Shown piece by piece: positions 39,576 to 61,645 of a DNA stretch of 64,000 nt (position 1 is its first letter; the number at the start of each line of letters is the position of its first letter). This DNA comes from an uncultured Chloroflexia bacterium. GTDB taxonomy: Bacteria > Chloroflexota > Anaerolineae > CG2-30-64-16. The translations under genes were made by a program, and so were the position numbers. The DNA lies in assembly GCA_963810095.1 (NCBI GenBank), contig CAWEMM010000009.1, forward strand, positions 288,001 to 352,000. Reading direction: 5' to 3'. A model generated the notes under the pieces. That model was given only the letters and a program-made list of their open reading frames with translations. It did not search any database and was not told where the DNA came from.

Positions 39576-40328
39576 ATGAATCTGAATGGAAAGGTCGCTC
39601 TGGTCACCGGCGGAGCGGTCCGGGTTGGCCGGTCGATCTCGCTGGGGCTGGCGCGCGCCGGTGCAGACGTCGTCGTCAACTATAATTCTTCAGAGCGGCA
39701 AGCCGAGCAGACCGAGGCCGACATTGTCGCGCTGGGCCGCCGGGCAATGCGCTGCCAGGCGGACGTGTCGAAGGAAGCCCAGGTCCGGGCCATGATTGAC
39801 GCGACGATGGAGCGGTTCGGCCGGCTCGACGTCCTGATCAACAGCGCGTCCATCTGGAAAGGCACCCCTTGGCCCGACATCAGCGAGACCGAATGGGACC
39901 TCTTGAACGGCGTGGTGGCGAAAGGGTCATTCTTCTGCACGAAGGCCGCTGCGCCCCACTTGGCCGCCCACGGTGATGGCGCGATTGTCAACATCGTCGA
40001 TTTGTCGGCGTTCCGGCCCTTCGTCGGCTACCTGCCCCACTCCGCTGCTAAGGGTGCGCTGCTCAACATGACCTACGCGTTCGCGATCGAGATGGCACCT
40101 GAAGTCCGGGTCAATGCGGTCGCACCGGGGGCTGTTCTGGCGCCGCCCGGCCTCACAGAAGACGACCTCGCCATCGCGGCGCGTGCGACGCTTCTGCAAC
40201 GCTGGGGCGAGGCCGAAGATGTCACCAGGACCGTTGTCTTCCTGGTGGAGTCGCCCTACATCACGGGCGCCGTGATTCCCGTGGACGGGGGCGAGATGCT
40301 GGCCTGGCGCAGGCCCTGTTTCGACTGA
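39576..40328 (+). CDS. SDR oxidoreductase, pteridine reductase (PTR1/FolM)-like
   Basis: TGGAVRVG (Arg variant), NSAS, NIVD, YLPHSAAK, VRVNAVAPG, VDGG. Confidence 0.82.
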   Translation: MNLNGKVALVTGGAVRVGRSISLGLARAGADVVVNYNSSERQAEQTEADIVALGRRAMRCQADVSKEAQVRAMIDATMERFGRLDVLINSASIWKGTPWPDISETEWDLLNGVVAKGSFFCTKAAAPHLAAHGDGAIVNIVDLSAFRPFVGYLPHSAAKGALLNMTYAFAIEMAPEVRVNAVAPGAVLAPPGLTEDDLAIAARATLLQRWGEAEDVTRTVVFLVESPYITGAVIPVDGGEMLAWRRPCFD

Positions 40329-40346
40329 GAACAAAGGATCGCGCGT

Positions 40347-41734
40347 ATGCAGATCATTATGCCCAAACTGGGCCTGACCATGACGCAAGGCACCATCACG
40401 GAGTGGCTGAAGTCGCCCGGCGACGCCGTCCGGGCCGAAGAGGCCCTGTGCGCGTACGAGACGGAGAAGGTCACGCTCGAGTTGGTCGCGCCGGAAGACG
40501 GCGTCCTGGTCGAGATCCTCGCACCTGCGGGCGCGACGGTGCCCGCCGGCGGGCCGGTGTGCGAGTTCCGAGTGGGCGCGGCCGTGGGCGCGGAGGCGAC
40601 CGCGACTGCACCCGTGGCAGCGCAGGCCGGTCCGGTCCTCGCGACGCCGAAGGCGCGTGCCCTGGCACGTGAGCGGGGGGTGGCGCTGGCTGCACTGAGC
40701 GGCAGCGGCCCGGCCGGCCGGATACAGGCGGCCGATGTGGCGGCCGTAGCCGGCGCAGGAGCGCGACCCGCAGGTGGCCCCTGCCGGCGGAGGCCCGCTC
40801 AAGGCGACGCCGCTTGGCCCGCAAGATGGCGGCCGCCGAAGGGATCGATCTGGCTGCCCTGGAGGGCACGGGTCCCGAAGGCACGGTGACGCGCGAAGAT
40901 GTTGAGCAGGCAGTGGTGCAACGGGGGGCGCATCCTTCGACTCCGGCCGGAACGGCCTACGCTCAGGATCTCTTGCCACAAGCGCAGCCACTGCATCCTG
41001 AGCGGAGCGCGTCCCACTGGGACGCCGCGCAGCCGAAGGATGTGACCACAGGCGAGACCGTCCTCCCACACTCCGTGCTCCGCCGCACCATCGCCGAGCG
41101 CATGAGCCAGTCCGCCTTCACGGCGCCGCACGTCACGCTGATGACCGAGGCCGACGCAGCCAATCTCGTTTCGGCCCGCGCACAACTGAACCAAGAGACG
41201 CCTCCCGATAAAAAGATCAGCTACAATGCCCTGTTTTCGGCGTTGGTTGCCAAGGCGCTCAAGGACTATCCGGGGCTCAATGCGCGCTGGGAGGCGGACG
41301 GCGTTCACCTGCTGGCCGATGTCAACATCGCGTTGGCGGTTGATACGGAACGCGGGCTGATGACGCCGGTCTTGCAGGGCGTCGATCGCCTTAACCTGCC
41401 GGCCGTGCAAGCAGGTTTCGCTGCGCTCGTGTCTCGGGCCCTGGCCGGCAGATCGCTGCCAGGCGACTTCGACGGCGGCACGTTCACCATCACGAACCTG
41501 GGCGCCAGCGACATCGACGGCTTCACGCCGATTATCAACCCGCCGCAGGCCGCCATCCTGGGCATCGGCAGGATCATTGAGAAGCCGGTCGCGCGCGACG
41601 GCGCGGTGGTGATTCGCCCCATGGTTACGTTGAGCCTAAGCTTCGACCACCGCATCGTCGACGGTGGGCCGGCGGGCAGGTTCCTGCAGCGAATCAAGCA
41701 ACTCGTGGAAAGGCCCATGGCGCTGCTCCTATGA
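40347..41734 (+). CDS. Dihydrolipoamide acyltransferase E2 (frameshift near 40800)
   Basis: Lipoyl domain MPKLG..ETEKV, two binding domains, GGTFTITNLG, PIINPPQ, SFDHRIVDG. Confidence 0.92.
40931..40969 (+). repeat. CCTTCGACT..GCTCAGGA short element inside the E2 linker
   Basis: CATCCTTCGACTCCGGCCGGAACGGCCTACGCTCAGGAT = HPSTPAGTAYAQD. Confidence 0.68.
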
Positions 41735-43083
41735 CTCATGTATCCTGATCGAGAACGGCACGCTGCTCTCGCCCGGTGCGTCCGGGGCTCACGGAAACCG
41801 TGGGCTGGGTGGCGCTCGAAGGCGAGAGCGTCGCCGCGATCGGTCCGGGGGCCGCGCCGCCAAGAGTGGCGCGGCTCGTGCCCAGCGGCTCATCGACGCC
41901 CGGCACATGGCCGTGCTGCCCGGCCTGGTCAACGCGCACACCCACCTCTCGCAGACGTTCCTGCGCGGGCTGGCCGACGACCGGCCGCTGTTGCGCTGGC
42001 TCAAGGAAGTGATCTGGCCGGCCCAGGCCGCGATGACGCCCGAGGACCAGCACCTGGCCGCGCTGCTCGGGCTCGTCGAGAACCTGCACTGCGGCGCGGC
42101 GACGGTGGTCCAGCACCACAAGCTGCCGGGTTACGAGTACGAGGACGCGGTGTGCCGCGCCGCGGCCCAGGTGGGCGTACGGATGGTGCTGGCGCGCGGC
42201 TGGGTCGACCTGGGGGCTTCGGGCGAAGGTATCGACGCCATCCTGGCGGACATGACCCACCTGCACGATGACATGGGGCGGTGCGAACGGCGGCCGGATC
42301 ACGGTTGCTTCCGGGCCGCTGACCCCCTGGCGCTGCTGCGACGACGCGATGCGCGAGGCCACGGCCCTGGCACGCAGCTGGGGCGCAGCGACCCACATTC
42401 ATGTAGCCGAGGCCCAGGACGAAATCGACCTGCTCGAGCAGCGATGCGGCCGGCGCCACATCGAGTGGCTGGCCGATCTCGGCTGCCTGGGGCCCGACAC
42501 GCAATTGGTCCACGCCGTCCACGTCACCGACGGCGAACTCGACCTCATTGCCGCAGTCTGGCGCACAGGTCGTCCATTGCCCGACGAGCAACATGTACCT
42601 GGCATCCGGCGCCGCGCCGGTCCGCAAGATGCTGGACCGGGGCATCCCCGTGTTCGCTCGGCACCGACGGATCCGGGTCCAACAACTCGCAGGACCTGCT
42701 CGAATGCGCGAAGGTCGCGGCCCTGCTGGCGAAGCACTCGACCGGCGACGCGCAGGCGCTGGTTCCCGCAGAGGTCGTGCCGATGCTGCTGCCCGTGGCG
42801 TCCGGTGGCCGGCGGTGGCTCGAAGTGGGCGGGCCGGCCGACGTGACCATCGTGGACCTGAACAATGCCCGCTGCCAGCCCGTTCACAGCGTCGCCTCCG
42901 CACTGGTGTACAACGCGGCCGGCCCCGATGTCCACACCGTGATTGTCGGCGGGCAGATCTTGCTGGACGCCGGGCGAGTGACGACGGTCGACGAGAGCTG
43001 CGCTCCTGGACGCGTGCCGGGCGGCTGCGGGCCGGCTGATGGCGCGGGCGGGAATCACACCGGTGAGGCACGAGAATGGCTGA
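41731..43083 (+). CDS. Amidohydrolase, MTA/SAH deaminase (AtzA/TriA/SsnA) family; several frameshifts
   Basis: PGLVNAHTHL.Q..RGLADD, HIHVAE, LVHAVH, HCPTSNMYLASG, GTDG.GSNN. Confidence 0.87.
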
Positions 43084-43832
43084 GTTGCTCCCGATGGCAA
43101 CGTCTCTGGTCGGCAAGGTCGCGTTGGTGACGGGCGGCGGCATGCGGGTCGGCCGCGCCATCTAGCCTGGCATTGGCCCAGCGAGGCGCGGCGGTCGCCT
43201 TCACCCGCCTGTCGTGCGAGGAGTGCGAGCGCGACCGCGGACGAAATCGCCGAGTGCGGCGTGGAGGCGATGGCGCTGGAGCTCGACGTAACGCGAGCCG
43301 GGCGCGCCGGCGCAGGTCGTGGAGCGGGTGATCGAGCGGTTCGGCCGGATCGACATCCTGGTGAACAACGCGTCGGTGTGGCTCCGCGCCCCGTTCCTCG
43401 AGATCACGCCCGCCGCGTGGCAGCAGGCGCTCGACGTCAATCTGACCGGTCCGTTCCTGGTCAGCCAGGCCGTCGGCGCCGCACATGCTGCGGCAGGGGG
43501 GCGGCCTGATCGTGAACATCACCGATCTCTCGGCCTACCAGACGTGGAAGGAGTACGCGCATCATGCGGCCAGCAAAGCCGGCCTGGTGGCCCTGAGCCG
43601 CGTCATGGCGGCCGAGCTTGCGCCGCACGTGCGCGTCAACGCGATCGCGCCCGGCACCGTGCTCCTGCCCGAGGGCGCGCCCGACGCCAAGCGCGCTTGG
43701 GCCGAGGGCAACTCGCTGCTCAAGCGCGTCGGCCACCCGGAAGACGTGGCGCGCACTGTGCTCTATCTCGTCGACAGCGACTTCGCCACCGGCGGCGTCT
43801 ATTTCATCGACGGCGGCCGAGCTTTGGTTTGA
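43076..43832 (+). CDS. SDR oxidoreductase, pteridine reductase-like (second copy; frameshifts)
   Basis: TGGGMRVG, NNAS, NITD, YAHHAASK, VRVNAIAPG, IDGG. Confidence 0.8.
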
Positions 43833-43955: not shown

Positions 43956-44949
43956 ATGGCTATTCAGGACTACTCACCGGAGTTGTTGCTCCGACTTTAC
44001 CGGCAGATGCTATTGGTGCGCGAGTTTGAACTGCGCGCCATTGCCGAGCGTCGTGCAGGGCTGATCCCCGGCTTCATCCACAGCTGTGTAGGCCAGGAAG
44101 CCACGGCTGCGGGCGCATGCGCCGCGCTCGAACCGCACGACGTGATCGCCAGCACCCACCGCGGCCACGGTCACCTCGTCGCCAAGGGTGGCGAGCCGAA
44201 GTACATGATGGCCGAACTAGCCGCTCGCACCACCGGCTACTGCGGCGGCAAGGGCGGCTCACTCCACATGACCGATTTCAACCTTGGCATCCTGGGGGCG
44301 AACGGCATCGTCGGCGGCGGAATCCCCATCGCGGTCGGCGCCGGCCTGGCCTTCCAGCAGCGCCGCGAGCCCCGGGTGGCCCTCTCCTTCTTCGGCGACG
44401 GCGCGACCAACGAAGGCTCCTTTCACGAGGCGCTGAACCTGGCCGGGTTGTGGAAGCTGCCCGTGGTCTTCTTCTGCGAGAACAACCTCTACGGCGAGGG
44501 CACGCCCCAGAACAAGCAGGCGCCGGTAGCCGATCTTGCCATCCGGGCAAGCAGCTACGCGATGCCGGGCGTGACCGTGGACGGTAACGACGTGTTGGCG
44601 GTGTACGAGGCGACGAAGGTCGCAGCCGACCGCGCACGTTCCGGCGGGGGCCCCACGCTGGTCGAGGGCAAGACCTACCGCCAGCGCGGCCACTACGAAG
44701 GGGACCCGATGGTCTATCGCAGCAAGGCCGAAATGGACGAGTGGAAGGGCCGGGATCCCGTCGTCTCGTTCCGCCGGCGGCTGTTGAGCGAGGCCGGCAT
44801 CGGCGAGGGCGAGGTCATCGCGCTGGAAAAGGACGTCCAGGCGCTGCTCAACGAGGCAGTGGCGTTTGCGGCATCCAGCCCCAAGCCCGCAGCCCGAGAC
44901 GGCGCTTGCCGGCGTTTACGGCGACACGCACGACGGACTGGTCTTCTAG
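43956..44949 (+). CDS. ThDP-dependent dehydrogenase E1 alpha (acetoin/pyruvate DH family); frameshift near 3' end
   Basis: GFIHSCVGQEA, STHRGHGH, GANGIVGGG, FFGDGA, ENN, RGHYEGD. Confidence 0.92.
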
Positions 44950-45048
44950 TCCGAGCGGAGTCGAGGCTTCTTCCGGCAGACCGCCCACAAGCGCCGCTCC
45001 AATGTCAGCAGCGAAGGCGGCCGTTCCACCAGGGGGATAAGGGTAGAC

Positions 45049-46035
45049 ATGAGCATCATCACTTACAGTCAAGCCATCTATAACGCCATGCGCGAGGAAA
45101 TGGACCGCGACCCCAACGTCATCCTCATTGGCGAGGATGTGGGCACATTTGGCGGCGTCTGGGGGGTCTCGGGCGACCTGGTCAAGATCTACGGCGAGGA
45201 TCGCGTGCGCGACACCCCGATCAGCGAGGCGGCCATCGTGGGTGCGGGCCTGGGCGCGGCGATGGTCGGTATGCGTCCCATTGTCGAGATCATGTTCGGC
45301 GACTTCCTGCCTGTCGCAGGCGATCAGCTGGTTAACCAGTTGGCGAAGGCCCGCTACATGAGTGGCGGGAAGGCGAGCGTCCCTGTGACCGTCCGCGTTA
45401 CCACGGGTGCGCCCGGCTCGTCGGCCGCGCAGCACTCGCAGTCGCCTGAGGGCTGGTACATGAATGTACCCGGCCTGAAGATCGCGGTGCCCGCCACGCC
45501 CGCCGATGCGAAGGGCCTGCTCAAAACCGCGCTCCGCGGAGAGGACCCCGTCCTCTTCTTCGAGCACAAGATGCTGTACGCGGTGAAGGGAGAGGTCCCC
45601 GACGATCCGGACTTCATGGTGCCGTTCGGCCAGGCGCAGATCAGCCGGCCTGGCAAGCGACCTGACCATCGTGGCGATCGGCGGGATGCTGCCGAAGGCG
45701 CTCGAAGCCGCGGGGATTCTGGCAAACGAGGGCATCGACGCCGAAGTCGTCGACCCCCGCACGCTTGTGCCGCTCGACAAGGAGACGATCGTCGCGTCGG
45801 TCAAGAAGACCAGCAGCTGTTGATCGTTCACGAGGCGCACAAGCGGCTGGGACCGGGCGCAGAGATTGCCGCGATGATCGCGGAAGAGGCGATCGGCTAC
45901 CTGGACGGCCCGATTGTGCGGGTGGCCGCCAAGAACGTGCCCTTGCCCTACAGCCCGGATCTCGAGAACACGGTGCTGCCAAGCTGCGAGGATATCGTCG
46001 AGAAGGCGCGCGGGCTGGCGCGCGGCAAGCTGTAG
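45049..46035 (+). CDS. Dehydrogenase E1 beta subunit (compensating frameshifts about 45660-45820)
   Basis: [38 protein letters not shown]. Confidence 0.92.
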
Positions 46036-46099: not shown

Positions 46100-47996
46100 A
46101 TGTCCAGAATGGCAGTCGTCGACCTGTCAACGGGCCGCATCACGATGAGCGAAACGCCGGCAGAACTGCTGCGCGACTACCTGGGAGGCCGCGGCCTCGG
46201 CGCCCGGCTGCTCTACGACCTGGTCGGTCCCGAGGTCGATCCGCTCGGTCCGGACAACTACCTGATCTTCACCGCCGCGCCGCTGGCCGGCACGCCCTGG
46301 CCGACTTCTGCGCGTATGCACGTCACCTTCAAGTCGCCGGCCACGGGCATCTATGGCTACGCCAACACGGGCGGGCCAGATCGTCGCGCGAGCTGCGCCA
46401 CGCGGGCTACGACGCGCTGCTCGTGACCGGCCGGGCGCCCGTAGCCGTCAGTCCTCCGGGTGGTCGACGACGAGATCACCATCGTCCCTGCGCCCGAGCT
46501 GTGGGGCCTGCAGACCGGCGCGGTGCACGATGCGCTGCTGGGCAGCGAGGGCAGCGCCGGCAAGGGACGCAACGGGTGTGTTGCCTGCATCGGTCCGGCC
46601 GGCGAGAACCTGGTCAAGATCGCCGCGATCATCAACGATCGCGGCCGGGCGGCGGCGCGCGGCGGGCCCGGCGCAGTGATGGGCAGCAAGAACCTGAAGG
46701 CGCTCCACGTCACGGCCACCAGCCGGCCGCCGACCAGCCCCGAGTTCCGCGAGGCCGCCAAAGAGACGGTCGGGAAGCTGCAAGGCCGATCCGCATCTCG
46801 ACGGTCTGCGCAAATGGGGCACGCTGGTGCTGATGGACTCGCAAGAACATCGGCGGCGATCAGCCGGCCAAGAACCACCAGTTCGTCCAGGTGCCCTACA
46901 TCAACAAAGTCAACGCCAAGGCGTTCGACCGCTACGTCGAGCAGCACCGGGGCTGCTATTCCTGCCCGATCCGCTGCAGCCGTGACTCGAAGGTCGCCGA
47001 AGGACCCTACCAGGTCGAAATGGAGGGCCCGGAGTACGAGACCACCAACGCCCTTGGCCCGATGTGTTGGGTCAGCGACCCTGAGGCCATCCTCTACGCC
47101 AACCGGCTGTGCAACGAGTACGGCCTGGATACCATCTCGACCGGCGTGACCGTCGCGTTTGCGCTGGAGCTGCGCGAGCGCGGGATCATCTGGCGACGAG
47201 CCGGACCTGGCGCTGGAATGGGGTAGCCCCGCGGCGCTGCACGGCTTGATCGAGCGGATCGCCCTGCGCCGCGGCATCGGCGACGTGCTTGCCGAGGGCA
47301 CGCGGCGGGCCGCGGAGATGATCGGCGGCGGCGCCGAGCGGTATGCGATGCAGGTCAAGGGGCTGGAACTGCCGCGCCAGGAGCCGCGCTTCGCCAAGGG
47401 CTTTGGCCTCGGCCACGCCACCTCGAACCGCGGCGCGGATCACCTTTACGGTATGCCGGCCATCGACCTGGCCGGCGCCTGGGATGTCGCGAACCGGCTG
47501 TTTGCCCCGGAGATCGTGCCCGAGCTGATGGATCCGGCCAACGAACGGTATAAGCCCGACATGGTCGTGTACGGCGAGCATTTCTGTGCGGTGACCGATA
47601 GCCTCGGCATCTGCAAGTTCAGCACGATCGAGGAGTGGGCGTTGTTCCCCGACGACCTGGCGCCCGGCGTGGCCGCGCTGTGGGGCCACCCGGTCACCGG
47701 CGCGGACCTGCTGGCCGTCGGCGAGCGGATCGTGAACCTGGAGCGCATGTACAACGTGCGCCAGGGCTTGTCGCGGGCAGACGACCAGTTGCCCAAGCGC
47801 TTCACGACCGAGCCCGCGCCCCTGTACGAGTATGAAGAGGACCCCGCGACCGGCCAGATGGTGCGCTCGGCCGAGCCCATCCGCGAGGGCCTGCTGCACG
47901 ACTTCGACGGGATGCTCGACCGGTACTACGATGCTGCGCGGCTGGACGCCCGATGGCAAGCCCACCGCGGAGACACTGAAGCGAGTCGGACTTTAG
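46100..47996 (+). CDS. Aldehyde:ferredoxin oxidoreductase family (W/Mo-bis-pterin), frameshifted
   Basis: YLGGRGLG, KSPATG, CIGPAGE, GAVMGSKNLKA, CYSCPIRC, GPEYET, GLDTISTG, VKGLELP..EPR, RGADH, DSLGICKF. Confidence 0.9.
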
Positions 47997-48091
47997 CGAC
48001 GTGTTTCGTTTACTTTTGATGTGATTTCTGATACACTTGCTCTCGGTGCATGCCAGCCAGGCACAGCGGCTATCACGTGCACGGGGGTGCG

Positions 48092-48348: not shown

Positions 48349-48399
48349 CGTCCCCGTTGCTCGCATTCGGGCGGGGGACCTTGATGCAAGGATGAATCT

Positions 48400-52313: not shown

Positions 52314-53308
52314 ATGAACACCAAGCTCTTTCAGAAGGATTTCATCACCACCCCCGACTGGTCCGTCGAAGATCTGAACACGATGCTCGATCTCGCGTTC
52401 CGGCTCAAGGGCGACATGGCGACCGGCGTGGTCCACGACCACATCCTGCGCGCCAAGACGCTCTACATGCTGTTCTTCGAGGAATCGACGCGCACCCGCA
52501 ACTCGTTCGAGACCGGCATGACCCAGCTCGGCGGCCACGCGATCTGGCTGACGCCGAAGGCGACGCAGATCGGGCACGGCGAGAACGCGAAGGACACCGG
52601 CATCGTCCTGAGCAGCTACGGCCACGGCATCGCGATCCGCGACTGCCGCACGGGCATCGGCAACAAGTACCTGTACGAGATGGCCCAGTACGCGGATGCG
52701 CCCATCATCAACATGCAGGACGACGTGGACCATCCCTGCCAGGCGATGGCCGACCTGATGACGCTGATGGAGCTGTTCGGCCGCAACCTGCGCGGCAGCA
52801 AGTTCGTCATCTCCTGGACCTACGCGCCCAAGTACGTCCGCCCGCTCAGCGTGCCCCAGTCGCTGCTGTGGCTGATGCCGCGCTTCGGCATGGACGTGAC
52901 CCTGGCGTATCCGAAGGGCTACCACATGATGCCCGACGTGATGGAGAAGGCGTGCCAGTTCGCCGACCAGGCCGGCACGAAGATCACCGAGACCAACGAC
53001 ATGGACGAGGCGTTCGAGGACGCCGACTTCCTCTATCCCAAGTCGTGGGGCCCGATCATGGTCACCGAGGACGAGCCCGAGGTCGAGGCGATGGCCGCGC
53101 AGAACGTCGAGCTGGCGGGTGACCAGCGAGAAGATGGCGCTGGCGAAGAAGCACGCGGTGTACATGCACTGCATGCCCATCGACCGCCACCACGAGGCCG
53201 ACGACGACGTGATCGACGGCCCGCAGTCGATCATCTACAAGCAGGCCGAGAACCGCCTGCACATCCAGAAGGCGCTGCATGGCGCTCGTCATGGGCGGCC
53301 GGGCGTAA
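52314..53308 (+). CDS. Carbamoyltransferase, YgeW-like (knotted OTC/ATC superfamily); frameshifts near 3' end
   Basis: STRTRNSFE, DHPCQAMAD, SWTYAPKYVRPLSVPQS, RFGMDVTLA, YPKSW, YMHCMP, QAENRLH. Confidence 0.85.
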
Positions 53309-53394
53309 CGACGTGACTCGCCAGGCGACACTGGTGACCGGTCGCGCTCACGCTGCTCGAGATCTCCGTGACTGGTGAAAACTGGAGGGCAGCG

Positions 53395-54466
53395 ATGGCT
53401 CCACATCCCACCCTGTGGATCACCCACCGCGGCGAGCGGCACCAGCAGGCCGCGCTGAACAGCGCGCCGCCCGAACTCGCGGTCACCATGCGCCGTTCGC
53501 CCTCGAAGGAGGAAATCCTCGAGCCTGCTGCCGGGCATGGAGTTCCTGGTCAGCGAGCGGACGGGCGTGATCGACGCCGACATGATCGCCGCGGGCAAGA
53601 ACCTGCGCCTGATCCAGCGGCTCGGCTCGCAGACCTACGACATCGACCTCGCCGGCGGCACAGGCCGCGGGCATCCCGGTCTGCTATGCGCCGGTGCTCG
53701 GCTGCATCATGGTGGCCGAGCACATGCTCATGCAGATCCTGGCGCTCGCCAAGCGCACGCGCGAGCTGATGGTCGTGGTCCAGGAGGCGAAACGACTTCG
53801 GCTATCCGCCGCGGCGCTGCGACGAGGACTACTTCGCCTACAACTGGTCGGGCTACCGGGGCGTGATGGGGCTGTGGGGCAGCACGATCGGCATCCTGGG
53901 CATGGGTGAGATCGGGAGCGAGCTCGCGCGGCTGCTGCGGCCGTTCGGCTGCACCGTGCTGTACAACAAGCGCAACCGGCTGCCCGAGGGCGCCGAGGCC
54001 GAGCTGGGCGTGCAGTTCGCGACCGTGGACGAGATGCTCGCCGCCAGCGACGTGATTTGCATGCTGCATGCCCTTCTTCCCCGAGACGGAGCAGAGCCTG
54101 AGCGCGGCGTTCTTCGCGGCGATGAAGCCCGGCAGCCTCTTCGTGAGCTGCGGCGGCAGCGGGGTGGTCGACGAGGACGCGCTGGCGGCAGCGCTCCGTT
54201 CGGGTCACCTGGCCGGCGCCGCGCTCGACACGTACACCTTCGAGCCGGTCGCGCTCGACGATCCGCATGCGGGCGCTGGCCGCCGACCCGCGGGCCAATG
54301 TCATCCTGACGCCCGCACACCGCGGCCGGCACCGGCCCGATCGCGTCCGATCCAGCCGACGCGCCGAGCGGGCCGAGGACTACGCCAACATCCTCCGCTG
54401 CCTGCGCGGCGAGCCGTCTGGCGGGGCGCCTGGTATAGGCCAGCATCGGAACTGTCGGAGGTCTGA
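53395..54466 (+). CDS. D-isomer-specific 2-hydroxyacid dehydrogenase family (frameshifted)
   Basis: [42 protein letters not shown]. Confidence 0.8.
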
Positions 54467-54470
54467 GCCC

Positions 54471-55836
54471 ATGGGGACGATCCTGATCGAAAACGGCGCG
54501 GTCGATCACCGTCGACGACGCGCCGACGTGTCTTCGACCCCGGCTACGTGCTGCTGCGGGAGACCGTATCGCGGCAGTGGGCGCCGGCGCCGCGCCCGAC
54601 GACGTTCGCGCGGCAGGCGGACGAGGTCATCGACGCGTCGCTGATGGCCGTCATGCCCGGCATGGTCAACGCGCACACGCACCTGTTCCAGACCTTCATC
54701 CGCGGGCTGGCCGACGACAAGCCGCTGCTCGACTGGCTGAAGGCCGCGATCTGGCCGGTCGCCAGCTGCCTGACGGAGGAGGACGCGTACCTGGCGGCGA
54801 TGCTCGGCCTGGTCGAGAACATCCGGGGCGGCGCGACGAGCGTCATCGACCACCAGTACATCCACACCGAGCCGGGCAACGACGACGGCGTGTTTCGAGC
54901 CGCGGAGCAAAGCGGCGTTCGCTTCCTCAACGCCCGCGGCTGGGCCGACATGAACTACCACCCGGCGCTTCATGGAGACGCCCGACCGGATCGTGGCCGA
55001 GATGGCGCGGCTGCACGAGCGCTGGCACGGCGCAGGCGGGCGGCCGTCTGCGGCTCGAGTTCGGCCCGCTGATCCCCTGGGGCTGCTCCGATGCGACGAT
55101 GCGGCGCACGCGCGGCCTGGCGGCCGAGTGGGGCGTGGGCACGCACATCCACGTCGCCGAAACGCGCGCCGAGATCGACATGGAGCTCGCGTCGCGCGGG
55201 ATGCGCCACGTCGAGTGGCTGGACTCGATCGGCGCGCTTGGGGCCCGACGTGCAGCTGGTCCACAGCGTTTGGCTGAGCGACCACGAGATCGACCTGGTC
55301 GAGCAGATCGGGCGCGGTGGTCGTCCACTGCCCGGTCTCGAACATGTACCTGGCGTCGGGCGTCGCGCGTGTGCCCGAGATGCACCGGCGGGGCATTCCG
55401 GTTGCTCTGGCGACGGACGGACCCGGCAGCAACAACAGCCAGGACATGCTGGAAGTGCTGAAGGCCACCTGTCTCCTGCACAAGGTCAGCTCGCTCGACG
55501 CGATGATCCTGCTGCCCGAGGACGCGTTGTGGATGGCCTGCCGGGGCGGAGCGGCGCGCGTTCGGCCAGCCCGGCCTGATCGGCTCGCTGGAACCGGGCA
55601 AGAAGGCCGACGTCGTGCTGGTCGACCTCAACACGCCGCTCGCGATGCCGGTGCACAAGCCTGTTTCCGCGCTCGTCTACAACCTCGCGGCGCGCGACGT
55701 GGACACGGTGATCGTGGATGGCAAGGTGCTGATGCGCGGCAAGCGCGTCCTGTGCGTCGACGAGACCGCACTGCTGGCCGAAGCCCGCCGTTCGTGTGCG
55801 CGGTTATTCGAGCGAGCCGGAGTGGCAGTCAATTAG
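54471..55836 (+). CDS. Amidohydrolase, MTA/SAH deaminase family (paralog of 41731-43083; frameshifted)
   Basis: PGMVNAHTHLFQTFIRGLADD, HIHVAE, HCPVSNMYLASG, ATDGPGSNN. Confidence 0.87.
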
Positions 55837-55914: not shown

Positions 55915-57156
55915 ATGCACCCTGAGATTATCGAGCGCGTGAAGACGCTCAGCGGGCAGATGAGCGAGCGGCGCGAGCGCTTCCTGGCCGACCTGATCCG
56001 CATCCGCTCCTACACGGGCCAAGAGCGCCCTGCAGTCGAGCGAACGCTGGAAGAGCTGCGGGCGATCGGCTGCGACGAAGTCTGGATGGACTCGGCGGGC
56101 AACGCGCTGGGGCGCATCGGGCGCGGGCCGCGGGTGCTGCTCTACGACGCGCACTTGGACACCAACGAGGTGGCCGACGAACGCGAGTGGCCTCACCCGC
56201 CGCTCGAACCGGTCGTCGAGGGTTCCGGCCCGGACGCAGTCATGTATGGCCTGGGCGCATCCGATTGCAAGGGGGGCGTCGCTGCCATCGTATACGGCGC
56301 TGCGATCCTCGCCGCGTTGAAGCGCGAGAGTTCAGAGGTCTCAGAAGACCTCCGGCGTCTGTTCGACGAAGTCTCTGTTGTCGTCATGGGCGCAACGCTC
56401 GAAGAGGATGCCGAAGGCTTCGCGCTCCGTTCCCTGGTCGAGCGCGACGGCCTGCGTCCCGAGGTCGTCCTGCTTGCCGAGGCCACCGACCTGACCCTCC
56501 GTCGCGGACAGCGTGGGCGCTGCGAAATCCGCGTTCGGACGGAGGGCCGGGCGGTTCATGCCAGCCAGCCGCATCTGGGCGAGAGTGCCATCCTCAAGAT
56601 GCTGCCCGTCATTTCTGCGCTGGAGGCGATGAACCCCCACCTGCCCGTCGATCCGATTTGGGGCCGCGGGACGCAGGTGGTCTCGTTGATAGAGGGGCCC
56701 CACACGCCCAACTCGGTGCCGGGATGGTGCGAGGTGGCGGTCGACCGTCGCCTAACGCCGGGCGAGACGCCTGAGTCAGTGCTTGCGGGCATCCGGTCGT
56801 GCGTCGAGCCGCTGGGCGCGACGGCTCGCATTCCGGACCAGCCCGTGCTGACCCATACGGGCCTGCGGCTCGACGGCCCATCGTTCTATCCCGGTTGGCT
56901 GCTGGCAGAAGAACACCCGCTGCTGGCCGCGGGTCAGTCCACCTGCCGGGCTCTGTTCGGCCGGGAGGCAGGGGTCGACGTGTGGCGCTTCTCGACCGAC
57001 GGCACCTACTCGGCCGGTGCGGCCGGCATCCCTACGCTCGGCTTCGGTCCCGAAGAGGAGCCGTTTGTGCACACTGCGCTCGACCAGGTTAACCTGGCAA
57101 AGCTGCGCCACGCGGCTGAGTTCTACGCCCTGTTCCCGTTGGCCTACCTGGCATGA
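55915..57156 (+). CDS. M20 family metallo-hydrolase, YgeY-like
   Basis: GNALGRIG, DAHLDT, GASDCKGG, EED, RGQRGR, DRRLT.GE, WRFSTDG, GFGP.EE..H. Confidence 0.87.
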   Translation: MHPEIIERVKTLSGQMSERRERFLADLIRIRSYTGQERPAVERTLEELRAIGCDEVWMDSAGNALGRIGRGPRVLLYDAHLDTNEVADEREWPHPPLEPVVEGSGPDAVMYGLGASDCKGGVAAIVYGAAILAALKRESSEVSEDLRRLFDEVSVVVMGATLEEDAEGFALRSLVERDGLRPEVVLLAEATDLTLRRGQRGRCEIRVRTEGRAVHASQPHLGESAILKMLPVISALEAMNPHLPVDPIWGRGTQVVSLIEGPHTPNSVPGWCEVAVDRRLTPGETPESVLAGIRSCVEPLGATARIPDQPVLTHTGLRLDGPSFYPGWLLAEEHPLLAAGQSTCRALFGREAGVDVWRFSTDGTYSAGAAGIPTLGFGPEEEPFVHTALDQVNLAKLRHAAEFYALFPLAYLA

Positions 57157-58550
57157 TCTACGACACCGTCATCCGCAACGGCACGGTGGTCACCCGAATC
57201 GGCCTCGTCCAGACGGACCTCGGGATCATGGGCGAGCAGATCGCGACGATCGATCGAGGGCTCGATGGAGCGCAGGTGATCGACGCGGCCGGTAAGCTGG
57301 TCATCCCGGGCGGCATCGACCCGCACGTCCATCTCCAGATGCCCGCCGGTCCGGTCACCTCGAGCGACGACTGGCGCACCGGCACGGTTGCAGCAGCGTG
57401 CGGCGGCACCACCACGGTCATCGACTTCGTGGAGCCGGAAAAGGGCAGCTTGATCCAGGGGCTTGCCGACCGCCGAGCTGAGGCCGAGGGCGCGAAATCG
57501 GGGAATGGCGGCGCGGTCGTCGACTTTGGCCTGCACATGACCATCATGGATGTGCAGCCCACCACGCTCGCCGAGATCCCCTTCGTGGTGCGCTCGGGCT
57601 GCACGTCGTTTAAGACGTACCTGACCTATGAGGGCTTCAAACTCGACGACGGGGAGCTGCTGGCCGCGTACGAAGCGGTGGCAGAAGCGGGTGGCCTTGC
57701 GCTGGTGCATGCGGAAAATGACGGGATCGTCAATCGCTTGAAGGCGCGCTTCCTTCGCGAGGGACATTTCGAGCCGCGCTGGCATCCAAGGTCTCGGCCG
57801 GGTCCGGCGGAAGCCGAGGCCGTGGTGCGAGCACTGGCCGTGGCCGAAGTTGCCGGCTGCCCGCTGTACGTCGTCCACGTCTCGACCGCCCGGGGGGCAG
57901 ATGCTGTGGCGCACGCCCGCGGCAGGGGGCAACACGCCTATGGCGAAACCTGCCCGCAGTACCTGCTGCTGACCGAGGCGGAATACGAGCGGCCGGGATT
58001 CGAGGGCGCGAAGTTTGTCTGCTCGCCCCCGCTGCGCCCTGAGTCCGACCGGGAGGGGCTGTGGGCGCGCATGGTCGCGGGCGATCTCAGCACGGTGGGC
58101 ACGGATCACTGCCCCTTCTTCTACCGGGGCCAGAAGGACCTGGGCCGGCCGGATGGGCAACATCCGCCGTTCAGCCGGATTCCGGGCGGGATGCCGGGTG
58201 TCGAGTCGCGGCTGGCCCTGCTGTACTCTTTCGGCGTCGGACAGGGTTGGTTGAGCGTCGAGCAGTGGGTCGAACTGTGCTGCACTGCCCCGGCCCGCAT
58301 TTTTGGCCTGGCCGGGCGCAAGGGCGAGTTGGTCGAGGGGGCAGATGCGGATGTTGTCATCTTTGATCCGGAGCGCAGTGTGACGCTCTCGCCGGCAGTC
58401 CTTCATGAGAACTGCGACTATACGCCCTACGAGGGGTTCCGGCTGAAGGGCTATCCGGTCCTGACGATGCTGCGCGGCCGCGTGATCGTGCGGGACGGCA
58501 ATTTCGTGGGCGAGGGCGCGGGGCGCTACCTGGTGCGCACCGGCATGTAG
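57153..58550 (+). CDS. hydA: Dihydropyrimidinase / D-hydantoinase (HyuA-like)
   Basis: PGGIDPHVH, GGTTTVIDF, SFKTY, HAEN, GETCPQYL, FVCSPPLR, TDHCPF, YTPYEG. Confidence 0.92.
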   Translation: MIYDTVIRNGTVVTRIGLVQTDLGIMGEQIATIDRGLDGAQVIDAAGKLVIPGGIDPHVHLQMPAGPVTSSDDWRTGTVAAACGGTTTVIDFVEPEKGSLIQGLADRRAEAEGAKSGNGGAVVDFGLHMTIMDVQPTTLAEIPFVVRSGCTSFKTYLTYEGFKLDDGELLAAYEAVAEAGGLALVHAENDGIVNRLKARFLREGHFEPRWHPRSRPGPAEAEAVVRALAVAEVAGCPLYVVHVSTARGADAVAHARGRGQHAYGETCPQYLLLTEAEYERPGFEGAKFVCSPPLRPESDREGLWARMVAGDLSTVGTDHCPFFYRGQKDLGRPDGQHPPFSRIPGGMPGVESRLALLYSFGVGQGWLSVEQWVELCCTAPARIFGLAGRKGELVEGADADVVIFDPERSVTLSPAVLHENCDYTPYEGFRLKGYPVLTMLRGRVIVRDGNFVGEGAGRYLVRTGM

Positions 58551-58607: not shown

Positions 58608-58793
58608 GGGGGCCGGCCGGCCCCTGCCAAATAGAAAGATGGAGCAGCGCCCGAAGCCCGAGGGGCCGGGGGCCAGCCGGCCCCTGCCAAATAGAAAGAC
58701 GGAGCAGCGCTCTTCTCCGGAGGGGCCGGGGGCCCGCGAGCCCTCGCCAGAGACCTAGTGCAGACGCGGGGTGGCGGGGGCCAGCCGGTCCCC
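58608..58793. repeat. Tandem 60-bp GC-rich intergenic repeat (2 full + degenerate partial units)
   Basis: GGGGGCCRGCCGGCCCCTGCCAAATAGAAAGAYGGAGCAGCGC at 58608 and 58668; partial copies near 58728 and 58776. Confidence 0.85.
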
Positions 58794-58823
58794 GGAAGAA
58801 TGCAACGCAGACTGGGGGATTTC

Positions 58824-60137
58824 ATGGGAACACTCATCCTGCCCGATTTCCTCATCGACATTCCCGGCGAGCCGCCCAAGGCCGGTTGGGGCGTCCGCGT
58901 GACCGGCGACCATGTCCACGCGGTTGCGCCCAATGCCGACTTGCGCCTGTCCTACCCCGACGACGAGGTTGTAGACGCGGCGGGCCAGGCCCTCTCGCCC
59001 GGTTTTGTCGACGCGCACACGCACCTGTACGGCGTGCTGGCGCACGGTATCCCCCTCCACCGGGCGCCGTCCGGCTTCTGGCCGTTCCTCACCGACTTCT
59101 GGTGGCCGCTCGTCGAAGACCGGCTGGACCACGAGATGATCTGTGCCGCAACTGACCTGAACCTGGTGCAGATGCTGCGCGGGGGCACGACGTCATTCTA
59201 CGACATCACCGAGGCGCCCCACGCCCTGCCGGGCTGTTTGAATGCCCAGGCCGCGGTGGTAGAGGCGAGGGGCATCCGCGGCATCCTCTCCTTCGAGGCA
59301 ACCGAACGGGTGAGCAAGGAGAACGGCCAACTGGGGCTCCGCGAGAATCTCGAGTTTGTCCGCTCGCACAGGTCCGGCTCGCTTGTCTCCGGCTTAATGT
59401 GCTATCACACAACCTTCACCTGCTCGGCGGACTTCATTCGCCAGGCGTTCGAGATGGCGGCGGGTGAGGGCGTCTCGGTGCACATGCACGCGTCGGAAGG
59501 CACGTACGAGCCCGAGCACGCGCTGGCCCATTTGGGCGGGCGCACGTTCGAATACTACGAGCGCCTGGGTGTGGCCGGCCCTGCCATGCAGGCTTCGCAG
59601 TGCGTGCAGATCACGCCCCGCGAGATCGAGATTCTCGCACAGCGCGGGGTCCGCGTCACCCACATGCCGCTGTCCAACTGCGAGGTGGGCGGCGGCATTG
59701 CACCCGTCCCTGACCTGCTTGCGGCGGGCGTGACGGTCGGCCTCGGTTCCGACGGGTACATCACCGACATGTTTGAGGTCATGCGCGGGGCCTTCCTGAT
59801 CCACAAGGCCCACCGGCAAGACCCGCGGGTGATGCCCGCAAGCGTCGTGTGGAAACTGGCGACTGAGGGCGGGGCGCAGGCGCTGGGGCTGGACAAGGTC
59901 GGCCGGCTGGCACCCGGGTGGCAGGCTGATCTGCAGTTGATCGACGCCGGACTGCCCACACCGGCCGAGGCGTGGAACCTGTACGACCAGCTGCTTCTCT
60001 ATCGGAGCCGGCGCGACGTGGCCGCGGTCATGGTCGCGGGGCAGTGGCAGGTGCGCGACGGGGCCGTGCTGGGCGCGGACGAGGCGGCGCTGCGCGCGAG
60101 AGCGCACGCCGCGGCTCGCCGGCTCTGGCAGATCTAG
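58824..60137 (+). CDS. SsnA-like amidohydrolase
   Basis: PGFVDAHTHLYG.LAHG, FWWP..DRLD, HTTFTCS, HMHASEG, HMPLSNCEVG, GLGSDG. Confidence 0.88.
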   Translation: MGTLILPDFLIDIPGEPPKAGWGVRVTGDHVHAVAPNADLRLSYPDDEVVDAAGQALSPGFVDAHTHLYGVLAHGIPLHRAPSGFWPFLTDFWWPLVEDRLDHEMICAATDLNLVQMLRGGTTSFYDITEAPHALPGCLNAQAAVVEARGIRGILSFEATERVSKENGQLGLRENLEFVRSHRSGSLVSGLMCYHTTFTCSADFIRQAFEMAAGEGVSVHMHASEGTYEPEHALAHLGGRTFEYYERLGVAGPAMQASQCVQITPREIEILAQRGVRVTHMPLSNCEVGGGIAPVPDLLAAGVTVGLGSDGYITDMFEVMRGAFLIHKAHRQDPRVMPASVVWKLATEGGAQALGLDKVGRLAPGWQADLQLIDAGLPTPAEAWNLYDQLLLYRSRRDVAAVMVAGQWQVRDGAVLGADEAALRARAHAAARRLWQI

Positions 60138-60147
60138 CGGAGGGTTG

Positions 60148-60474
60148 ATGAAACGCCGGTTCCTTGCCGCACTCGTGGTCTTGTTGCTGGGCGCGGTCCT
60201 GGCGACGCTCCTTGTGTTGGTGGCGACAAACGGCTACGGCACGGCCGGCGCGGACCTCGGTAAGGCCGCGACGGCCTACCTCGCAATCGGGCTGGTGATC
60301 GCGGTCCTGCTCGCCTGGCTGAGTGCGGCGTTTTCCCGGTGGCTGAGTGCACGCACCGGGTGGCGGGGGTATGTCACGCTGCCGCTCGCGTTGGCTCCGG
60401 CGCTGGTGCTGGAGCTGTTCTTGCTCTTGTTTGCCGGCGTCTCGTCGGCTGCGCTCAGCACGCCAGTGGGCTGA
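60148..60474 (+). CDS. Hypothetical membrane protein (3 TM)
   Basis: Three hydrophobic segments, GGAGG RBS, operonic position. Confidence 0.65.
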   Translation: MKRRFLAALVVLLLGAVLATLLVLVATNGYGTAGADLGKAATAYLAIGLVIAVLLAWLSAAFSRWLSARTGWRGYVTLPLALAPALVLELFLLLFAGVSSAALSTPVG

Positions 60475-60506
60475 GCGAACGGCTCCAAAGGTGGTGTGGA
60501 GGCTTC

Positions 60507-61645
60507 ATGGCTGATCTGCGTACAACTTTATTCGGTGTCGGGATGCCGTCGCCGTTTATCCTGGCCTCCGGGCCGCTCTCGTACGATGCGACGGGGCTGT
60601 GGGAGGCGTACCGAGCGGGCGCGGGTGGGGTGGTCACGAAGACCTTGCGGCTCGAGGCGGCGATCAACCCGACGCCGCACATGGTCGTGCCGCGCTCGTC
60701 CAACCTGCGCGCGACGCTGTTCAATACGGAGAAGTGGGCTGACCTCACGTGGCAGCATTGGGTCGAGAAGGAACTGCCCGCCCTGGCTGGCCACCCAGGC
60801 ATGTTGATCGCCAGCATCGGCCACACCGCGGCCGAGGGCGACGTGATCGCAGGCCCGGTCGCCGACACGGGCGTCGTGGATGCCATCGAATGTGTGGCAT
60901 ATACGAAGGCGACGATCGTCGATCTCGTTCGGATCGTCCGCCATCGTGCGCCCAGCATCCCGATCCTGGCGAAGCTCACCTTTAATTGGGGGATGACCTC
61001 TACCCCGCGGCGGAGGCCGCGCTCGAGGCCGGGGCCAACGGGTTCACTGCCATCGACTCGATCGGTCCCACGCTGCAGATCGACATCGAGAGCGGCGAGC
61101 CGACCATTGGCGGCGCGGGCAACAAGGCCTGGATGTCAGGTGCGGCCATCCGCCCGGTGGCGCAGGCCGTCGTCTCCGAGTTGGCGACGCGCTTCCCCGG
61201 CGTCCCGATTGTGGGCACCGGCGGCGTCATCCAGGCAGAAGATGCGGTCGAGATGACGATGGTGGGCGCGAGCGCGCTGGGAGTGTGCACGGGCCCGCTG
61301 CTGCGGGGCCTGGAATGGTTCGGACGGACGGGCGAGAAGCTGTCGGCGTGGCTCGACAGCCATGGCTACGCGGATCTCGCTGCGGTGCGCGGGATGGCGC
61401 TGCCCAAGCTGCACCCGGTCGAGGACACGAGCCGCCTGACCTTCGATTTCAACCCGATGCTGTGCACCAAGTGCGACCTGTGCGTCGTGCTGTGTCCGTA
61501 CGATGCCCGCGAAATGGGCGGCGGCGACAAGCCCAAGACGCCCACGCTCACGCAGATCCTGGACGAGGATCGCTGCCGGTACTGCGGCCTCTGCGTGGAA
61601 GTATGCAAGCCCGCAGCATTGACCTACGGCAACTGGCCCCGCTAA
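60507..61645 (+). CDS. Dihydropyrimidine/dihydroorotate dehydrogenase-like FMN protein with C-terminal 4Fe-4S dicluster (PreA-like); frameshift near 60990
   Basis: PFILASGP, GGVVTKT, ILAKLT, SGAAIRP, IVGTGGV, CTKCDLCVVLCP and CRYCGLCVEVC. Confidence 0.85.

Follow-up and report, generated by a model that had tools for sequence, protein, structure and literature searches.

A long run of co-oriented genes for hydrolases, deaminases, reductases and a molybdenum enzyme in an uncultured Chloroflexia bacterium raises the question of which ring compound it serves to degrade. The run lies on a 64,000-nucleotide stretch of DNA (here the window), positions 288001 to 352000 of contig C9 (CAWEMM010000009.1) in assembly GCA_963810095.1, which we designate G000, the metagenome-assembled genome of an Anaerolineae member of the Chloroflexota from soil or sediment, with 6.13 Mb in 16 contigs and 65% G+C. 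Between 39.5 and 61.6 kb of the window the codon-position signal is entirely on the + strand. A first-pass annotation, made from the sequence alone, had counted 19 co-oriented genes there and proposed a purine ring-opening toolkit adapted to a different bicyclic substrate, with pterins or lumazines as the best guess. After frame correction we find 18 genes, all on the same strand. With a probability of roughly 0.6, they form a conserved catabolic set that represents a paralogous, second version of the reductive urate enzyme set and likely acts on an oxidized N-heterocycle other than urate. The part of this reading to which we commit is that the locus is a conserved, modular cluster for a predicted reductive catabolism of N-heterocycles and ureides, paralogous to the urate pathway and probably with a different substrate; the leading candidates are a pteridine, or else a purine or pyrimidine that is substituted or carboxylated.

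The reductive urate pathway, which passes through 2,8-dioxopurine ("yanthine"), was published in 2025 for gut bacteria (PMC12507026). The Escherichia coli cluster consists of xdhD-ygfM, ygfK, ssnA, hyuA, ygeW, yqeA, ygeY and ygeX (PMC12507026; bioRxiv 10.1101/2025.04.24.650524). In the first of these accounts, XdhD-YgfM reduces urate to 2,8-dioxopurine, and the dearomatizing step is carried out by YgfK or, in Clostridioides difficile, by the PydA homolog UacX. UacX is a PF01180 protein without an FAD domain, is probably ferredoxin-dependent and adjoins SsnA in a cluster that also has XdhD, HyuA and YgeY. SsnA and HyuA open the rings; ureido removal proceeds by the phosphorolytic YgeW together with the carbamate kinase YqeA, or by UacY, and then by YgeY; YgeX forms pyruvate in the last step (PMC12507026). 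The XdhD of C. difficile is only about 26% identical to that of E. coli (PMC12507026), and in some characterized urate degraders the carbamate kinase is encoded elsewhere on the chromosome (bioRxiv 10.1101/2025.04.24.650524). SsnA clusters of Chloroflexota are reported there with an F420-type reductase and, as far as that account goes, without YgfK or UacX, which sets them apart from the cluster in the window (PMC12507026).

Four genes at the 3' end of the 18-gene span can be compared directly with this set. The YgeY-family M20 hydrolase (55915 to 57156, + strand, intact) scores above the cut-off of NF009555 (342 bits against 321) and just under that of TIGR03526 (317.4 against 321.5); it is 36% identical to E. 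coli YgeY and has orthologs at 76 to 88% identity in 11 of 40 relatives. The adjoining D-hydantoinase/dihydropyrimidinase (57153 to 58550, +, intact; TIGR02033, 500 bits against a cut-off of 393) shares 42% identity with E. coli HyuA across 464 columns, the best HyuA match in the genome. An SsnA-related amidohydrolase follows (58758 to 60137, +, intact) and, directly after it, a reductase of the PydA/PreA/UacX type (60498 to 61645, +, one frame break near 60991). The reductase joins a DHO_dh domain to two 4Fe-4S motifs and has no FAD/NAD domain. It matches E. coli PreA at 30% identity along its full length, stays under the cut-off of the PreA model (173 against 335 bits) and has no PreT-like gene adjacent to it. 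The first-pass annotation had called it an atypical PreA-like protein; the resemblance holds, and its architecture is that published for UacX. UacX is an established substitute for YgfK in C. difficile (PMC12507026), so the lack of YgfK alone does not set the cluster apart from the known pathway, and the pairing of a PF01180 Fe-S reductase with an SsnA-type hydrolase is shared with the C. difficile variant.

The SsnA-related enzyme is a distant relative of its namesake. Its best NCBIfam match is the SsnA model TIGR03314, at 246 bits against a cut-off of 455.5, and it also falls under NF005540 (234 against 444). Its identity to E. coli SsnA is 27%, and the two deaminase-type amidohydrolases of the cluster (deam1 and deam2, below) score alike, at 25 to 28%. 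In a phylogenetic tree it belongs to a clade of 9 of the 24 rows (support 100/100) whose sister group comprises E. coli SsnA and a canonical SsnA from the relative G014 (99/98); the clade has a very long stem and stands apart from the deaminase clades. The genome's true SsnA ortholog is encoded on contig C6.

Like the urate cluster, the window encodes an enzyme of the xanthine dehydrogenase (XDH) family, with an FAD subunit (48397 to 49260, +, three breaks; Pfam, NCBIfam and frameshift-aware alignment), a 2Fe-2S subunit (49276 to 49745, +, one break; Pfam, tblastn and frameshift-aware alignment) and a molybdenum subunit (49842 to 52186, +, 13 breaks; 778 amino acids in relatives). The molybdenum subunit shares about 30% identity with E. 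coli XdhA and XdhD alike and lacks the XdhD-specific insertion that holds E606; all subunits are under the cut-off for all equivalog models. The YgeW-like carbamoyltransferase (52227 to 53308, +, two breaks; Pfam, tblastn and frameshift-aware alignment) was scored through its G014 ortholog, which is closer to YgeW (35% identity, 208 bits) than to ArgI (30%, 137 bits) or PyrB (28%, 91 bits), but remains under the YgeW cut-offs (TIGR03316, 221 against 453 bits; NF005538, 211 against 500) and under that for ornithine carbamoyltransferase (255 against 306 bits). As the first-pass annotation had noted, YgeX, YgfK and carbamate kinase are absent from the window; in the 88.5%-complete genome no TIGR03528 (YgeX) match rises above the cut-off, the best reaching 34.8 bits. 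The cluster shares with the urate set an XDH-family molybdenum enzyme with an FAD subunit, the HyuA-type hydantoinase, the YgeY-family M20 hydrolase above cut-off and a YgeW-leaning carbamoyltransferase, and differs from it in lacking YgeX, an in-cluster carbamate kinase and the XdhD insertion. It also differs by what it adds: two short-chain dehydrogenases/reductases (SDRs) with a TGX3RXG motif, two deaminase-type amidohydrolases, a UbiD-family decarboxylase, an aldehyde:ferredoxin oxidoreductase (AOR) with a MoaD-like protein, E1 and E2 components resembling pyruvate dehydrogenase (PDH), and a 2-hydroxyacid dehydrogenase.

These additions fill most of the 5' part. The cluster opens with SDR_A (39540 to 40328, +, intact; Pfam adh_short_C2, 1e-43), whose likely start is the ATG at 39576 after GGAGG. 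There follow a dihydrolipoyl acyltransferase E2 (40338 to 41734, +, two breaks) with lipoyl, E3-binding and catalytic domains and 70% identity to its G014 ortholog; deam1, an Amidohydro_1 protein of deaminase/chlorohydrolase type (41742 to 43059, +, seven breaks; Pfam, tblastn and frameshift-aware alignment); and SDR_B (43082 to 43832, +, four breaks), in which TGX3RXG at 43130 and HX3K at 43563 lie in different frames. Next are E1 alpha (43956 to 44949, +, one break) and E1 beta (45028 to 46035, +, two breaks) of a thiamine pyrophosphate-dependent 2-oxoacid dehydrogenase. The AOR (46100 to 48019, +, seven breaks) shows AFOR_N and AFOR_C on three pieces and is intact, at 639 amino acids, in G015. 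A small ThiS/MoaD-like protein (48037 to 48348, +; Pfam ThiS, 1.9e-5, 25.5 bits against a cut-off of 22.5) leads into the XDH genes, which it also precedes in loci L013, L060 and L062. Between the carbamoyltransferase and the M20 hydrolase lie a D-2-hydroxyacid dehydrogenase (53386 to 54438, +, eight breaks; Pfam, tblastn, NCBIfam and frameshift-aware alignment) and deam2, the second deaminase/chlorohydrolase-type protein (54471 to 55836, +, nine breaks; Pfam, tblastn, NCBIfam and alignment). The span contains four Amidohydro_1 enzymes.

The families named in the first-pass annotation are all present by Pfam and NCBIfam, among them the two SDRs, the AOR with its ThiS/MoaD-like partner, the XDH trio and the 2-hydroxyacid dehydrogenase. 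Its acetoin-type E1/E2 did not hold up. E1 alpha, through its ortholog, is nearest to the PDH model TIGR03182 (Pfam E1_dh, 5.5e-85; 354 bits against a cut-off of 394), the E1 beta ortholog exceeds the cut-off of PDH E1 beta (PRK09212, 368 against 321 bits), and E2 reaches only 74 of the 307 bits required by the acetoin model PRK14875; judged by these scores, the set appears PDH-like, not acetoin-type. For deam1 (scored through its G015 ortholog) and for deam2, the best NCBIfam matches are chlorohydrolase, 5'-deoxyadenosine deaminase and 8-oxoguanine deaminase models, all under cut-off. The nearest solved structures to deam2 are uncharacterized amidohydrolases, a methylthioadenosine/S-adenosylhomocysteine deaminase and an 8-oxoguanine deaminase. 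When SDR_A, deam2 and the SsnA-like protein were compared with PDB sequences, only generic or uncharacterized relatives came up, which do not discriminate between substrates.

To see how far the set is shared, we scanned one genome per species with the carbamoyltransferase and scored the resulting 80 loci with the cluster proteins; because many of these loci are short, little weight attaches to an absence. All but about seven are titled Anaerolineae, Caldilineae or other Chloroflexota. The M20 hydrolase is present in 53 loci, the SsnA-like enzyme and deam2 in 21 each, and the hydantoinase, the 2-hydroxyacid dehydrogenase and E1 beta in 20 each. UbiD (at 55% identity or more) was found in 19 loci, E1 alpha and the XDH molybdenum subunit in 16, an AP_endonuc_2 protein (56 to 76% identity) in 13, deam1 in 11, the UacX-like reductase, AOR and SDR_B in 10 each, and SDR_A in 8. 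The pair of carbamoyltransferase and M20 hydrolase is near-constant, and other modules recur: E1 alpha with E1 beta; the 2-hydroxyacid dehydrogenase with deam2 and SDR_A; the XDH trio; and the hydantoinase with the SsnA-like and UacX-like proteins. The order HyuA, SsnA-like, UbiD, UacX-like returns in four loci (L057, L060, L062 and L088). Among the 57 loci that span 12 kb or more, none has a match to YgfK, carbamate kinase or a PALP enzyme. Many Anaerolineae and Caldilineae genomes carry the cluster in intact but rearranged form, and the co-occurrence across Chloroflexota on which the first-pass annotation had made its proposal depend is borne out. An open full-text literature search, with most subscription journals outside its reach, returned no description of this type of Chloroflexota cluster; the published precedent is for the replacement of YgfK by a UacX-type protein (PMC12507026).

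Conservation also bears on where the cluster ends. The first-pass annotation had closed it at 61645. A xylose-isomerase-like TIM barrel protein of the AP_endonuc_2 family (62721 to 63527, +; Pfam) and a UbiD-family decarboxylase beyond the window (G000:C9:353977-355470, 4.3 kb 3' of the PreA-like gene; Pfam) are counted into the cluster because both travel with it in relatives. Between the first of these and the window end begins a saccharopine-dehydrogenase-like gene (63524 to 64000, +, extending past the window; Pfam); the cluster probably continues past 61645 into at least three more genes, UbiD included. The UbiD gene, the frame breaks and the related clusters elsewhere in the genome had all escaped the first-pass annotation. 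The 1.07 kb or so between the PreA-like and AP_endonuc_2 genes (61646 to 62720) has no coding signal or family match; the corresponding place in G015 holds a deam2-like gene.

The rest of the genome bears on the substrate. A search by tblastn with E. coli K-12 proteins revealed a second, more canonical urate-type cluster at G000:C6:1264-1290k (loci L108 and L109). It encodes YgfK (38% identity over residues 1 to 988 of 1032, 660 bits, in one frame of 1145 amino acids), SsnA in three frames (32 to 42% identity) and a carbamate kinase (48% identity; TIGR00746, 365.9 bits, above the cut-off of 358). Tandem PyrB-like and YgeW-like carbamoyltransferases, YgeY-like M20 genes, two PALP enzymes, two XDH sets, a GntR regulator and an ATP-binding cassette (ABC) transporter accompany them. 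This C6 cluster is likewise full of frame breaks; the same YgfK-SsnA-XDH arrangement is intact in G014, whose SsnA is 37% identical to that of E. coli. The window carbamoyltransferase is 47% identical to the YgeW-like copy on C6, and YgeW (35%) is a closer match to both copies than ArgI or PyrB is. The best XdhD-like gene of the genome (C12:407528-409858), an XDH paralog that is 40% identical to XdhD and carries the XdhD insertion, is remote from both urate-type clusters.

Relatives show the same coexistence. Among 24 of the same family, 22 have a YgfK ortholog and 14 a UacX-like ortholog, and both occur in 12 of those 14; the two with the UacX-like gene only are 65% and 92% complete. The YgfK orthologs of G003, G013 to G016, G020 to G024 and G032 contain one internal stop (TAG, TGA or TAA), which looks like a two-gene form as against a fused form rather than recoding. 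Because this genome and most relatives with the cluster also hold the canonical YgfK-SsnA cluster, a substrate other than urate is likely for the window cluster, and the retention of two systems side by side argues for different roles. What the first-pass annotation had suggested in general terms is therefore upheld for the reuse of purine ring-opening families, here paralogous to the C6 urate cluster, and is a likely reading where the substrate is concerned.

The sequences themselves establish gene content, conservation, paralogy and motifs. By analogy with the characterized enzymes, from which we infer each catalytic step as well as the substrate, the cluster may work as follows. The three-subunit molybdenum enzyme of the XDH family would hydroxylate or dehydroxylate the ring, and the ferredoxin-type, PydA/UacX-like FMN/Fe-S reductase would dearomatize it. 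The SsnA-related hydrolase and the HyuA-type hydantoinase would then open the rings. One ureido group would be removed by phosphorolysis through the YgeW-like carbamoyltransferase to give carbamoyl phosphate, from which the carbamate kinase encoded on C6 could make ATP; the YgeY-family M20 hydrolase would take off the other. The accessory genes (two deaminases, two SDRs, UbiD, AOR, the PDH-like E1/E2 and the 2-hydroxyacid dehydrogenase) are predicted to feed or drain this core.

Several observations weigh against this interpretation. The SsnA-like, YgeW-like and PreA-like proteins and the XDH subunits fail the curated cut-offs of the families that they resemble, so that the parallel with the urate pathway depends on remote resemblance together with gene context. 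The long branches of the SsnA tree were flagged as unreliable by the tree program itself. Gene order is shuffled among relatives, with only the carbamoyltransferase-M20 pair near-constant, so that the 18 genes may be several modules instead of one pathway. Finally, the coexisting systems could represent redox or regulatory redundancy for one substrate.

That last point leads to the foremost alternative, an unlikely one that nevertheless deserves to be taken seriously: the cluster would be a ferredoxin/UacX-type variant of the known urate pathway with the same substrate as the YgfK cluster on C6. The deaminases would then funnel in guanine, 8-oxoguanine and adenine-type purines, the AOR would supply reduced ferredoxin, and the PDH-like E1/E2 and the 2-hydroxyacid dehydrogenase would dispose of the pyruvate end product. 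Much fits this proposal. The families that surround UacX in C. difficile, with SsnA beside it and XdhD, HyuA and YgeY in the cluster, recur in the window (PMC12507026), its M20 and HyuA proteins are above family cut-offs, and 8-oxoguanine deaminase is among the near-matches of deam1 and deam2. A carbamate kinase outside the cluster has precedent among characterized degraders (bioRxiv 10.1101/2025.04.24.650524), and the divergence of the C. difficile XdhD means that low identity is no exclusion (PMC12507026). The proposal nevertheless has to account for a better SsnA (37% against 27% identity to the E. coli protein), a full-length YgfK and the insertion-bearing XdhD-like paralog elsewhere in the genome, and for the retention of YgfK in 12 of the 14 relatives with a UacX-like gene. 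It offers no role for the two TGX3RXG SDRs or for a UbiD placed between the SsnA-like and UacX-like proteins, and the genome has no YgeX above cut-off.

A second alternative, tentative and on balance improbable, is that the cluster is an anaerobic pathway for pteridines (pterin, lumazine or folate-derived). Deaminases would yield lumazines, PTR1-like SDRs would reduce the pyrazine ring, XDH would hydroxylate, AOR and UbiD would strip an oxidized side chain from formyl through carboxyl to CO2, and the purine toolkit would open the pyrimidine ring. Both SDR_A and SDR_B carry TGX3RXG, a motif described as specific to the pteridine reductases PTR1, FolM and PruA (PMC1971073, PMC13259868). The Arg of the motif is kept in 16 of 17 cluster-linked SDR relatives, and it is present in only 2 of 12 SDR-like open reading frames (ORFs) from a motif scan of the genome. 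For both proteins the best NCBIfam match is the pteridine reductase PRK09135, at 210 to 214 bits, under the cut-off of 288. They nonetheless differ from PTR1, FolM and PruA in having HX3K in place of YX3K, and hence His for the catalytic Tyr, as do at least 13 of the 17 relatives; they also lie in a catabolic cluster, whereas the setting of the known enzymes is folate or pterin synthesis. The description of these genes as pteridine-reductase-like in the first-pass annotation is accordingly supported by the N-terminal motif and weakened by the catalytic residue and the failed cut-off. A third SDR copy with TGX3RXG and HX3K occurs near G000:C1:120568, about 17 kb from an XDH gene.

The closest published comparison for pteridines is the aerobic lumazine pathway of Cupriavidus sp. 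LA-1, which includes a pterin deaminase, a three-subunit dehydrogenase of the xanthine oxidoreductase (XOR) family and a UbiD-family decarboxylase (PMC12391406). Cluster I of that strain resembles the window in bringing together an amidohydrolase-superfamily deaminase, a three-subunit XOR-family enzyme and UbiD. Its defining step, 6,7-dihydroxylumazine isomerase, is encoded by a pair of Amidohydro_2 subunits; these are missing from the window set, as is an in-cluster UbiX, and the LA-1 pathway, as far as it is described there, ends at xanthine, whereas the window set proceeds to ring reduction and ureide cleavage (PMC12391406). Amidohydro_2 (PF04909) has five matches in the genome, none of them on C9; a tandem pair at C6:824122-825717 stands beside UbiD and XDH genes. 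That region (C6:823-833k, locus L118), with GntR, the two tandem Amidohydro_2 genes, UbiD, XDH FAD, FeS and Mo subunits and a Bmp-type ABC transporter, matches the LA-1 composition better than the window cluster does (PMC12391406). The two UbiX (PF02441) matches in the genome are both far from the cluster. The nearest plasmid-borne homologs of the window UbiD (36 to 39% identity) are in furoate-type clusters, which is uninformative on substrate and lends pteridines no support, and the sequences give no tie of XDH or the deaminases to these compounds. Hence the pterin/lumazine guess of the first-pass annotation keeps the motif in its favor and loses ground to the missing Amidohydro_2 genes and the closer lumazine-type look-alike on C6. 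Pteridines remain the single best candidate for the substrate, at odds well short of even. With comparable reserve, we consider that the cluster might represent an undescribed anaerobic Anaerolineae pathway that degrades pteridines or fused N-heterocycles with other substitutions. Such a pathway would be characterized by the TGX3RXG/His clade of SDRs, a UbiD between the SsnA-sister and UacX-type enzymes, and YgeW-like energy conservation as carbamoyl phosphate, and it would be distinct from both the reductive urate and the aerobic lumazine routes, look-alikes of which the same genome appears to encode.

More doubtful still is a route for monocyclic ureides or imidazoles. In one form this would be a reductive pyrimidine-type pathway (for uracil, orotate or 5-substituted pyrimidines), in which a PydA-like reductase and a dihydropyrimidinase act with the M20 hydrolase or the carbamoyltransferase as decarbamoylase; in the other it would be a xanthine fermentation of clostridial type that proceeds by way of 4-ureido- and 4-amino-5-imidazolecarboxylate and in which UbiD would decarboxylate. 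Xanthine fermentation in clostridia runs through imidazole carboxylates. The window does resemble reductive pyrimidine degradation (PydA/PreAT, dihydropyrimidinase and beta-ureidopropionase) in placing a PreA-type reductase, here a homolog of PreA/PydA at 30% identity to the E. coli protein, a dihydropyrimidinase-type hydrolase above the equivalog cut-off of TIGR02033 and a decarbamoylating enzyme side by side. UbiD enzymes, moreover, use heteroaromatic carboxylates, according to the lumazine study (PMC12391406). Yet the window cluster lacks a PreT partner and has, beyond the pyrimidine set, XDH, the SsnA-related hydrolase, the deaminases and a carbamoyltransferase, and the SDRs and the affinity of the SsnA-related enzyme to true SsnA are left unexplained. 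A second PreA-like gene by a nucleoside-type ABC transporter, about 21 kb downstream, could be the pyrimidine one.

As assembled, 13 of the 18 genes are not ORFs. Gene extents and breaks were obtained by frameshift-aware alignment to intact orthologs, mainly from G014 and G015, two short-read metagenome-assembled genomes (MAGs) of other genera whose orthologous clusters have full-length genes. For SDR_A and the M20, HyuA and SsnA-like proteins the alignment reference was the window's own ORF, and their intactness rests on single-frame matches to orthologs and, for SDR_A, also on a full-length Pfam match. The alignments placed 60 frame breaks of one base each in the stretch from 40773 to 60991, of which 53 are extra bases and 7 net -1 changes, with no in-frame stop and no larger deletion; after frame correction, identity to the orthologs is 70 to 91%. 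Break density is 3.8 per kb from 40.3 to 55.9 kb and zero from 55.9 to 60.4 kb. An association with homopolymers was tested, and none was found. Consistent with this pattern, Pfam matches are fragmented (E2 over two ORFs, AOR over three, and the molybdenum subunit, one amidohydrolase and the PreA-like protein over several), and tblastn with G014 and G015 proteins spreads each window gene over two to six frames.

Public short-read data allow these breaks to be compared with independent sequence. Four DNA sequencing runs share sequence with the locus, in small shares (0.05 to 0.08), and served the indel comparison only; no runs with RNA covering the locus were listed. We consider the best-supported 12 of 90 indel rows from the comparison with short-read contigs. 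In 11 of these 12 the window holds one base too many, and 10 of them coincide with seven predicted break sites; the remaining two, at 53078 and 53081, cancel out. Over 43129 to 43435, within SDR_B, one contig shows 4 mismatches in 304 nt and three gaps exactly at three predicted breaks. In the 2Fe-2S gene, contigs are one base shorter at each of 49514 and 49517, and contigs with 0 to 2 mismatches over unbroken stretches have no gaps. Because the spectrum is dominated by insertions and lacks nonsense codons and deletions, unlike decay, and because the short-read contigs lack the extra bases, the breaks are very probably long-read assembly errors, and the genes are best treated as intact. Against this stands the fact that contigs without the extra bases mostly represent populations 90 to 99% identical, so that the same strain is not certain.

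Suspected errors are not confined to the cluster. A six-state codon-position tracker run genome-wide over 851 windows of 14 kb ranked those at C9:329000 and C9:336000, which cover it, first and second, with 30 and 29 same-strand frame switches against a median of 7. Other dense patches lie at C12:259000-280000, C9:357000-378000 and C6:1232000-1295000, and therefore the suspected insertion errors are patchy rather than limited to this locus. Split genes of a similar kind occur in the few-contig relatives G001, G002 and G008, and the completeness of G000 is scored at 88.5% despite its assembly into 16 contigs. The idea that the breaks are genuine, so that this strain would hold an array of pseudogenes in decay, to which the top-ranked frame-switch density and the intactness of upstream genes and of four genes inside the cluster (which make the damage local) lend some color, is highly improbable given the single extra bases without nonsense codons or larger deletions, the identity to orthologs after correction, the absence of the extra bases from short-read contigs at predicted sites, the like patches and split genes elsewhere, and a completeness of only 88.5% for a 16-contig assembly. 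In practical terms, where single-base insertions come in local bursts in a long-read MAG, a working operon can pass for a row of fragments.

A promoter-like site ahead of the cluster can be read directly from the sequence: TTGACA at 39280 to 39285 and TATAAA at 39303 to 39308 (+), separated by 17 nt and about 265 nt 5' of the first gene. A sigma-70 consensus scanner listed no promoter-like site between 38500 and 58400; this one went unlisted because the scanner demands T at the final position. Terminator-like sites are no commoner than in shuffled sequences (7 found against 8.2 expected), and therefore the scan, with no sigma-70 sites either, offers no evidence for internal units. We also considered a riboswitch in the 265-nt leader and dropped it. 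Rfam gave no match at gathering thresholds in the whole window and only chance-level matches in a permissive scan of 39150 to 39650, the leader is unconserved in all loci compared and elsewhere in the genome, and its fold is ordinary relative to shuffles (z = -0.56).

The genome is unusually rich in N-heterocycle toolkits, and two further examples lie near the cluster. At 1 to 12.7 kb of the window, on the - strand, is another N-heterocycle-type cluster of intact genes, with a hydantoinase-like amidohydrolase (1512 to 2840), two XDH-family sets (2979 to 10836), a further carbamoyltransferase (10890 to 11819) and an IclR regulator (11870 to 12682); an MttB-family gene (12808 to 14241, +) stands next to it. 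Downstream, the region G000:C9:364000-375000 (locus L111 and beyond) contains a Bmp-type nucleoside ABC transporter, a DAO-family oxidoreductase, a guanine-deaminase-like amidohydrolase with three internal TGA codons and the second PreA-like gene (C9:372958-374097); this last gene, with an amidohydrolase and the transporter, lies 17 to 22 kb past the window. The region may form a unit of its own for pyrimidines or nucleosides. Of a different nature is the region at 28700 to 32400 of the window (-), which is inositol-catabolism-like (IolB/KduI, a thiamine pyrophosphate enzyme, GFO/IDH/MocA genes and a sugar ABC transporter). It contains short frame segments, and its aldehyde dehydrogenase is split into ORFs 30278 to 32404 and 30754 to 31359, probably by another patch of assembly errors.

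Abundant environmental Chloroflexota thus hold several paralogous editions of the urate enzyme set per genome, one of them enlarged by reductases, deaminases and a decarboxylase, and the locus described here provides a candidate set of enzymes for assay. If their substrates differ, these editions would mark an unknown anaerobic recycling of nitrogen-rich rings, such as purines, pteridines and cofactor debris, in soils and sediments.

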